From a virus (Duplodnaviria; Heunggongvirae; Uroviricota; Caudoviricetes), in the IMG/VR virus record IMGVR_UViG_2874915312_000001: 13,872 nt of DNA; one strand, given 5' to 3'. Position numbers and translations under genes: made by a program. This document shows, piece by piece, positions 1 through 608 of the stretch; the stretch's first letter is position 1, and every line of letters starts with the position of its first letter. The notes below the pieces were generated by a model. That model was not told the DNA's origin, did not search any database, and worked only from the letters and a program-made list of their open reading frames with translations.

Positions 1-570
1 TCAGGGCGTAGTTGATTGAGCGAGTGGGCGAGCGAGGACATCAATGCGCCATCCTTGTTGACTGGCAATCCAGCCCTCCAGCCACAGACGGGTGGTATCC
101 TGAATATTCCAGCCAACCACCAGCGCATCTTTACCCTGTTTTTTACGTGCCGAAGCCAGACAAATGGCGATGTAGTTGATCAGTACGCCGTTGAGGATCG
201 CCAGCAGCGCCTGGAGAGTCGGTTGTTGGCACTGAAGCCGTCGGCGCAGAGGAATAAACAGATGTGTGGTGAGTGTCTGGGCGGGGTAATCCTGACCGCG
301 CTCTTTGATCCACGTTCGCAGGCTATGTAGATTGCCGCTTTGCAGGTAAGTCAGTAATGTTTCTTGCTGATCGCGCCAGACGTTCTGCACATCAACATTT
401 TCATTACTGAGCAGTATTTTAACTTTGCTGACCTGCACGCCGTTGTCGATCCAGCGTTTGATCTCGCGGATCCGGTCAATATCAGCATCGTTGAACAGCC
501 GATGACCGCCGTCTGTCCGTTGCGGTTTCAGCAATCCGTAACGCCTCTGCCACGCGCGTAACGTGACAGG
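1..570 (-). pseudogene. mlrA: mlrA/yehV (MerR-family regulator) lacking canonical N-terminus; frame also terminates at window pos 1-3, earlier than expected
   Basis: ORF 1..534 translates LKPQRTDGGHRLFNDADIDRIREIKRWIDNG..., a MerR-type HTH I recognise as MlrA. In-frame codons upstream to ~568 read PVTLRAWQRRYGLL, then similarity stops and the expected MALYTIGEVALLCDIN start is absent. Near the 3' end the expected residues HSLNQLRP are encoded in a different frame at ~6-29, implying a small indel near 27-33. Recognition is from memory, not a search. Confidence 0.6.
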
Positions 571-608
571 GATTAAAGGTAAACCAATTGATTTTGCAAG
601 TTTTTATT
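569..608. other. prophage left junction (attL region, approximate)
   Basis: Lies between the point where mlrA similarity ends (~568) and the integrase stop codon (609-611). The core att sequence cannot be defined without the right junction. Confidence 0.3.

Follow-up and report, generated by a model that had tools for sequence, protein, structure and literature searches.

A Shigella flexneri mlrA gene very probably inactivated by both a prophage junction and an independent 4-bp duplication

MlrA is a MerR-family activator of csgD and a regulator of curli and biofilm formation. The Shigella lineage is known for its accumulation of pseudogenes, and disrupted curli loci were reportedly described across Shigella by Sakellaris et al. 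in 2000. The closest described counterparts of the locus analysed here are STEC strains in which a prophage occupies mlrA (also named yehV): those with a prophage at the proximal mlrA site produce no curli and do not bind Congo red, and both properties are restored by supplying mlrA in trans (PMC3874044). Two reports likewise describe the STEC mlrA prophage as abolishing MlrA-dependent curli and biofilm (PMC3874044; PMC5931665) and, for O157:H7, the latter states that excision of the prophage can restore mlrA. Moreover, mlrA has been listed among the genes disrupted through phage integration (PMC3603311), and csgG and csgA are both annotated as pseudogenes in S. flexneri 2457T (PMC6854044). 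Searching the literature for mlrA or yehV together with Shigella, we found no paper dealing specifically with mlrA lesions in S. flexneri, and no expression or phenotype data for the S. flexneri gene.

The locus considered here lies at the start of a 13,872-nucleotide stretch of DNA, the whole of which is referred to below as the window. We conclude that window 1-608 is, with high probability, a dead mlrA of S. flexneri that has been inactivated by two independent lesions, namely, the insertion of a prophage at its 5' end and a 4-bp duplication towards its 3' end. An earlier reading made from the sequence alone had surmised a Shigella-like source, and this proved correct: window 1-10534 is 100% identical to CP026803.1, the genome of Shigella flexneri strain 89-141 (PMC9455713). 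The features that make up the remnant and its junction are as follows:

1..3, minus strand: premature TGA stop of the shifted frame, in the context CCC_TGA (window 6-1); the frame ends ...DVLARPLAQSTTP followed by the stop
1..550, minus strand: body of mlrA, 98.4% identical to K-12, which begins inside codon W23, on the downstream side of the att core, and extends as far as the premature stop; it carries M68I, G80V, D143N and one synonymous change
29..36, minus strand: 4-bp tandem duplication CGAG·CGAG (gene strand CTCG·CTCG) after codon A196, the source of the frameshift, located by alignment
551..570, minus strand: 20-bp att core CACGCGCGTAACGTGACAGG, mlrA codons P17-W23, common to attB, attP and attL
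571..608, minus strand: phage arm of attL, standing in place of the mlrA promoter, start codon and codons 1-16
609..795, minus strand: 3' remnant of a tyrosine integrase gene, the last 61 of 428 codons plus the stop, with a translation that matches the C-terminus of int

Translation and alignment with K-12 assign window 1-570, on the minus strand, to mlrA from codon 17 onward, and orthology is supported by 98.4% identity between window 1-576 and the K-12 gene. The genomic neighbourhood is also that of K-12: in locus L005, the fragment is followed downstream by yohO (UPF0387) and then by genes with BPD_transp_1, ABC_tran, BPD_transp_1 and OpuAC domains, the K-12 reference order being yohO-yehW-yehX-yehY-osmF. 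K-12 MlrA has 243 amino acids and reads MALYTIGEVALLCDIN-PVTLRAW...RIDVLA-HSLNQLRPELFEG...PLGI. By contrast, the main minus-strand frame of window 1-609 reads K*KLAKSIGLPLI-PVTLRAWQRRYG...GWRIDVLA-RPLAQSTTP* (asterisks denote stops), terminating at window 3-1, such that the phage-arm residues K*KLAKSIGLPLI are fused in frame to the mlrA residues PVTLRAWQRRYGLLKPQRTDGG, and comparison with K-12 places the change of frame after codon A196. A second minus-strand frame of the same interval reads ...SLAHSLNQLRP and runs off the start of the window. When one of the two CTCG copies is removed, a frame opens that runs from P17 to I243 and differs from K-12 only by M68I, G80V and D143N. Within the mlrA body, Pfam recognizes MerR_1 (in part), MlrA_helical and MlrA_C (profile positions 1-40 only); the helical domain is whole, and MlrA_C is divided between two frames: the main frame covers profile positions 1-40, and an open reading frame of 52 aa, distinct from it, covers 34-77. 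Thus, no single frame contains MlrA_helical together with an uninterrupted MlrA_C, and the complete MerR winged helix-turn-helix (HTH) with its own start codon is likewise missing from the mlrA of the window.

At the 5' end, similarity to K-12 stops upstream of CCTGTCACG (codon P17, window 570-568), and what lies beyond P17 matches, without any difference, the junction of E. coli strains with a prophage adjoining mlrA, in which a tyrosine integrase gene, xis and lambdoid genes follow. The core at window 551-570 maps exactly to a misc_recomb feature annotated as the 'attachment site of Enterobacteria phage VT1-Sakai', and in a four-way alignment it is shared by attL (in the window and in Sakai), attP (in the free phage phi330) and attB (in K-12 mlrA). 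The phage records that match the junction comprise VT1-Sakai, YYZ-2008, JLK-2012, BP-4795, Stx2a phages and phi330, and both the core and the phage arm are identical to those of VT1-Sakai, YYZ-2008 and phi330. In phi330 (L011, PV189401.1; ~285-325), the 20-bp core occurs twice in tandem, perhaps through a genuine duplication within attP, or perhaps as an artefact of assembly or of the termini.

Read in frame with mlrA, the phage arm supplies a TAA and then K-L-A-K-S-I-G-L-P-L-I, offering ATT and ATC only; there is no in-frame ATG, GTG or TTG between this upstream TAA and codon 26, the first such codon being the TTG at codon 26 itself. The Pfam match to MerR_1 begins at profile position 16 of 69, with the loss of positions 1-15. 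By comparison with MerR-family structures, which align to MlrA residues 3-126, the lost residues 1-16 (MALYTIGEVALLCDIN) form the first helix of the MerR winged HTH. A promoter and terminator scan of window 1-900 revealed no sigma-70-like promoter on either strand, which is a weak negative. A search with the first 48 nucleotides of K-12 mlrA, allowing up to three mismatches, gave no match anywhere in the window; hence, the 5' stub of the gene does not lie within it. The sequence-only reading had held that mlrA is disrupted at both ends and that the prophage junction removes the N-terminus of MlrA, and it is upheld for this end by the VT1-Sakai attachment core, the 3' end of int at 609-795 and the replacement of residues 1-16.

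For the 3' lesion, the window was aligned with K-12, with the E. coli mlrA lysogen 2013C-4991 and with CP178302.1. On the gene strand, the window reads GTC CTCG CTCG CCCAC, as against GTC CTCG CCCAC in K-12, and only a single copy of the tetranucleotide is present in K-12, 2013C-4991 and E. coli VL7S7. The duplication can equally well be placed as GCGA·GCGA at 28-35 on the plus strand of the window and, because it is a tandem duplication, a 'new' copy cannot be defined. It splits MlrA_C, and translation would end nine codons past the frameshift, at bases that in K-12 read ..CGC CCT GAA.. (R-P-E). Upstream of the window start, in CP026803.1, the canonical sequence HSLNQLRPELFEGRTLLVWCGENRTSAQQQQLTSWQEQGHDIFPLGI can be followed, still in the shifted frame, as far as the canonical stop, the out-of-frame stretch amounting to the last 47 codons. 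All of this agrees with what had been read from the sequence alone: a 4-bp insertion had been proposed 'around 27-33', which falls right within the ambiguity of a tandem duplication at 29-36; the canonical C-terminal residues had been recognized in a shifted frame near the window start, and their continuation out of frame beyond it is borne out in CP026803.1; and K-12, with its 4-bp gap, differs in both frame and 3' sequence. Given that MlrA of E. albertii and Citrobacter also has 243 amino acids, the duplication is the derived state, that is, an insertion here rather than a deletion in K-12.

The duplication was sought more widely with a 66-base query across the site (window 1-66). The E. coli matches comprised 5,404 records, all with an identity of 62/66 and none reaching 95%, and, of the complete E. 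coli genomes containing this region, which number 5,402, not one had the duplication. It is present in CP178302.1 (locus L001) and in loci L005-L009, its carriers being the complete genome CP026803.1, three draft assemblies, one Logan read-set assembly and CP178302.1; in a contig collection with one genome per species, a 38-mer across the duplication matched CP178302.1 only. The 177-aa truncated product begins with the TTG of codon 26 and ends at the premature stop; exact matches to it occur on contigs from five or more independent assemblies, and its database entry is entitled 'HTH-type transcriptional regulator mlrA [Shigella flexneri K-227/K-272]'. The databases likewise list the out-of-frame C-terminal ORF of 52 aa, which occurs on at least 1000 contigs; the names attached are those of S. 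flexneri, strain 2002017 being one example. The 3' lesion is, therefore, widespread in S. flexneri and is already embodied, unremarked, in public annotation. Since it is common to independent S. flexneri assemblies and to a divergent S. flexneri-like isolate, it is both real and old.

That divergent isolate, ECMA0423 (CP178302.1), was deposited as E. coli; it is O13:H14, ipaH+/sigA+/pic+, with a genome of 4.44 Mb (PMC12488370). It has been described as a hybrid ETEC/EIEC, and it would seem to belong to the S. flexneri lineage. The five S. flexneri loci all share nt135 C>T, M68I, G80V, D143N, the duplication and nt726 C>T. The mlrA region of CP178302.1 (L001 4290-5596) has the prophage junction of the window, M68I, G80V and the duplication; it lacks three of the other shared changes and the IS911 cut in int, and has acquired changes of its own, namely, an IS629-type insertion in mlrA (at the position of window 336-339), five more substitutions and, near the 3' end, the deletion of 1 bp. 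As the junction and the duplication are common to the window and CP178302.1, both predate the split of the sublineages, after which mlrA has kept decaying independently, a pattern that fits a pseudogene. With regard to the order of the two lesions, E. coli VL7S7 and O121 strain 201805972 carry at mlrA a prophage remnant that is 99.7-100% identical to that of the window, and do so without the duplication, which suggests, rather than proves, that integration came first. The drift of mlrA since its inactivation appears to have been neutral, as judged by the substitutions, of which three are non-synonymous and one is synonymous, and by the further lesions of the sister lineage.

The prophage itself is heavily decayed. 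The integrase remnant was identified by nucleotide and protein comparison with annotated lysogens: int is annotated as adjoining mlrA in E. coli lysogens, the 61-codon remnant matches it, and the remnant region is 97.8% identical to the int region of VT1-Sakai and YYZ-2008 (Pfam returned no match for a 70-aa ORF over the remnant). Beyond it, the following features were recognized:

796..2045, plus strand: IS911, which cuts the integrase gene; annotated as an IS3-like element, with HTH_Tnp_1 and rve domains and terminal repeats TGAAGTGG...CCACTTCA
2046-2699: partial IS600, cut by IS911
2708-5461: ISSfl3 (IS66 family), with tnpA, tnpB and tnpC that look intact and a perfect 8-bp target duplication GGTTGAAT
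5499-6317: cluster of four tRNA genes, Gly-TCC, Thr-TGT, Arg-TCT and a CAT-anticodon 'Met' (Ile according to PGAP)
~6614-6624: Q antiterminator gene, which has lost 113 bp that E. coli VL7S7 retains (L004 8132-8244)
8299-8301, minus strand: nonsense codon Q135* in a DnaB-like replicative helicase gene, relative to the 99.7%-identical VL7S7 copy
11574-13148: 524-aa ORF with Ash and Rha domains, in place of which VL7S7 has separate ash-family genes
from 13503 (13503-13872): second, inverted copy of IS600

The lambdoid content of the window, thus, comprises a P21-type holin, NinH, the DnaB-like helicase, a DnaC/IstB-like loader, Rha/Ash regulators and the tRNA cluster; xis is absent. Because int is cut and xis is gone, the prophage cannot excise, and the 5' disruption of mlrA is irreversible. 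The transposase genes of IS911 point away from mlrA. The two copies of IS600 are inverted with respect to each other and 100% identical over 370 bp, and they flank the replication/Q/lysis block, which is itself inverted relative to the integrase; an inverted pair bracketing an inverted block suggests an IS-mediated inversion of the prophage interior. ISSfl3 has inserted directly at the end of IS600 (window 2700-5469). The Q segment deleted here is flanked, in VL7S7, by an 11-bp direct repeat, ATATAACCATC, and the nonsense codon of the helicase gene splits it into ORFs of 134 and 327 aa. Short repeats with 97% identity (11494-11561 and 12150-12217) lie near the Ash-Rha ORF, which suggests recombination between paralogous ash/rha genes. 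The tRNA cluster is only 292 bp from the P21-type holin gene, in the interval where related Stx phages carry stx; no stx-sized ORF lies between the two, so there are no stx genes at the usual position, which gives the remnant the appearance of a relative, lacking stx, of the Stx phages that integrate into yehV.

It might be argued that only the 3' frameshift matters, with the phage arm providing a usable ATT start (588-586) for a fused MlrA that lacks residues 1-16 and is otherwise functional. The fused frame is indeed open from the phage arm into mlrA, and RefSeq/PGAP lists a 233-aa 'HTH-type transcriptional regulator MlrA' (WP_029208330.1) in E. coli lysogens, starting at an ATT (L002 3582-3584 and L004 3082-3084, equivalent to window 586-588) and carrying no pseudogene flag; in calling the phage-fused gene intact, some annotators evidently treat the 5' lesion as tolerable. 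However, ATT is a very poor initiator and is preceded here by nothing resembling a Shine-Dalgarno sequence, the scan of window 1-900 revealed no promoter-like site, and the integrase gene, as a possible source of read-through, has been cut by an element whose transposase genes read away from mlrA. Such a protein would, moreover, be without MerR_1 profile positions 1-15, and STEC with a prophage at the very same site lose curli and Congo-red binding until mlrA is provided in trans (PMC3874044). We consider a functional fusion very unlikely, and regard the ATT-start MlrA of RefSeq as an annotation convenience rather than as evidence of function; in the E. coli lysogens, it probably masks a disrupted gene.

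Two further readings concern the 3' end. As the window stops just 28 bases past the duplication, the evidence contained within the window alone is thin, and the extra four bases could in principle have been a sequencing or assembly artefact, or the private mutation of one isolate. The lesion is not of the homopolymer type, the same duplication recurs in CP026803.1, the three drafts, the Logan read-set assembly and CP178302.1, and the resulting 52-aa ORF is found on the many S. flexneri contigs noted above, including that of strain 2002017; we give this explanation practically no credence, and an artefact in particular is rejected on account of the many independent assemblies that carry the duplication. 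Alternatively, the frameshift could be compensated during translation: the shifted frame ends ACG CCC TGA A, the last base lying immediately outside the window, such that a +1 slip from CCC to CCT would bring GAA CTA TTC (the canonical E-L-F) into frame and yield a near-normal C-terminal domain with nine altered residues, and CCC_UGA is especially prone to +1 shifts in E. coli (PMC3082878). With respect to the hallmarks of a programmed +1 site, a shift-prone P-site codon and a slow stop are present, but neither conservation or selection nor stimulatory elements are found. Indeed, the canonical CGC CCT GAA yields this motif automatically when it is read one base off, so that its presence is no evidence of selection, and the 'shifty stop' is probably incidental rather than programmed. 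Slippage at CCC_UGA typically has an efficiency of 2% or less, and the product would in any case have neither promoter nor start codon and would be without its HTH helix. In the sister lineage, the gene has gained an IS insertion and lost 1 bp downstream, as would be expected of neutral decay. Compensation is, in our estimation, highly improbable, and a trace of frame-restored product may be formed if the fragment were translated at all.

We, therefore, return to inactivation by two independent lesions, for which the following course of events is proposed. A yehV-integrating, lambdoid phage resembling the Stx phages would have entered at the 20-bp core, within codons 17-23, through site-specific recombination, parting the body of the gene from its promoter, ribosome-binding site, start codon and codons 1-16, which encode the first helix of the winged HTH. 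The prophage would then have decayed: truncation of its integrase to 61 codons by IS911, together with the loss of xis, would have precluded reversal by excision, and the insertions of IS600 and ISSfl3, the helicase nonsense codon and the Q deletion would represent further decay. As a second, independent lesion, the 4-bp duplication after codon 196 shifts the frame. On this basis, no functional MlrA should be made, and its input to csgD and curli would be lost, as the sequence-only reading had supposed; both lesions are found as described, and the loss of curli activation is deduced from the E. coli literature (PMC3874044).

A different view of the same events is that selection, as opposed to neutral decay, favoured the loss of MlrA as that of an 'anti-virulence gene' early in the evolution of S. 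flexneri, with the prophage being locked in by loss of its integrase, and the loss then being reinforced by the duplication, which divergent S. flexneri sublineages have in common, and by later IS hits; were this true, the curli-related biofilm phenotypes reported for S. flexneri under bile and glucose would have to reach csgD independently of MlrA. We think it unlikely that selection operated in this way, or that its minor variant, in which a trace of protein is made by a +1 slip, applies. Under twofold inactivation of the conventional kind, the expression of csgD in S. flexneri must equally be independent of MlrA if the gene has been inactivated twice and irreversibly. Beyond correct annotation, the finding matters little, yet it provides useful background for work on the regulation of biofilm and curli in Shigella. 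Additionally, the 4-bp duplication could serve as a simple marker of the S. flexneri lineage, given that it occurs in none of the 5,402 complete E. coli genomes.

Overall, the locus most resembles the Stx1 prophage (of the VT1-Sakai/Sp15 and CP-933V type) found in yehV/mlrA of O157:H7 and other STEC, with which it shares an identical core and arm; as in insertions of the VT1-Sakai type, mlrA is broken at codons 17-23, and the integrase remnant retains the 97.8% identity given above. It differs from the O157:H7 and STEC prophages in being a decayed remnant that is unable to excise, with int reduced to 61 codons, and in its burden of IS911, IS600 and ISSfl3, the helicase nonsense codon and the Q deletion, as well as in having no stx at the usual position. 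Unlike the mlrA of E. coli lysogens, the body of the gene here carries a second, independent frameshift. The decay of the csg locus in Shigella affects the same pathway in the same organism, whereas the gene damaged here encodes a regulator that acts upstream in the pathway and is neither a structural nor a secretion gene. The mechanism is conventional, being routine Shigella pseudogenization at a known phage hotspot, with essentially nothing new about it: in common with the generic process, which proceeds through IS elements, small indels and prophages, one dispensable gene has taken several independent hits and mostly non-synonymous changes, and there is no difference in kind.
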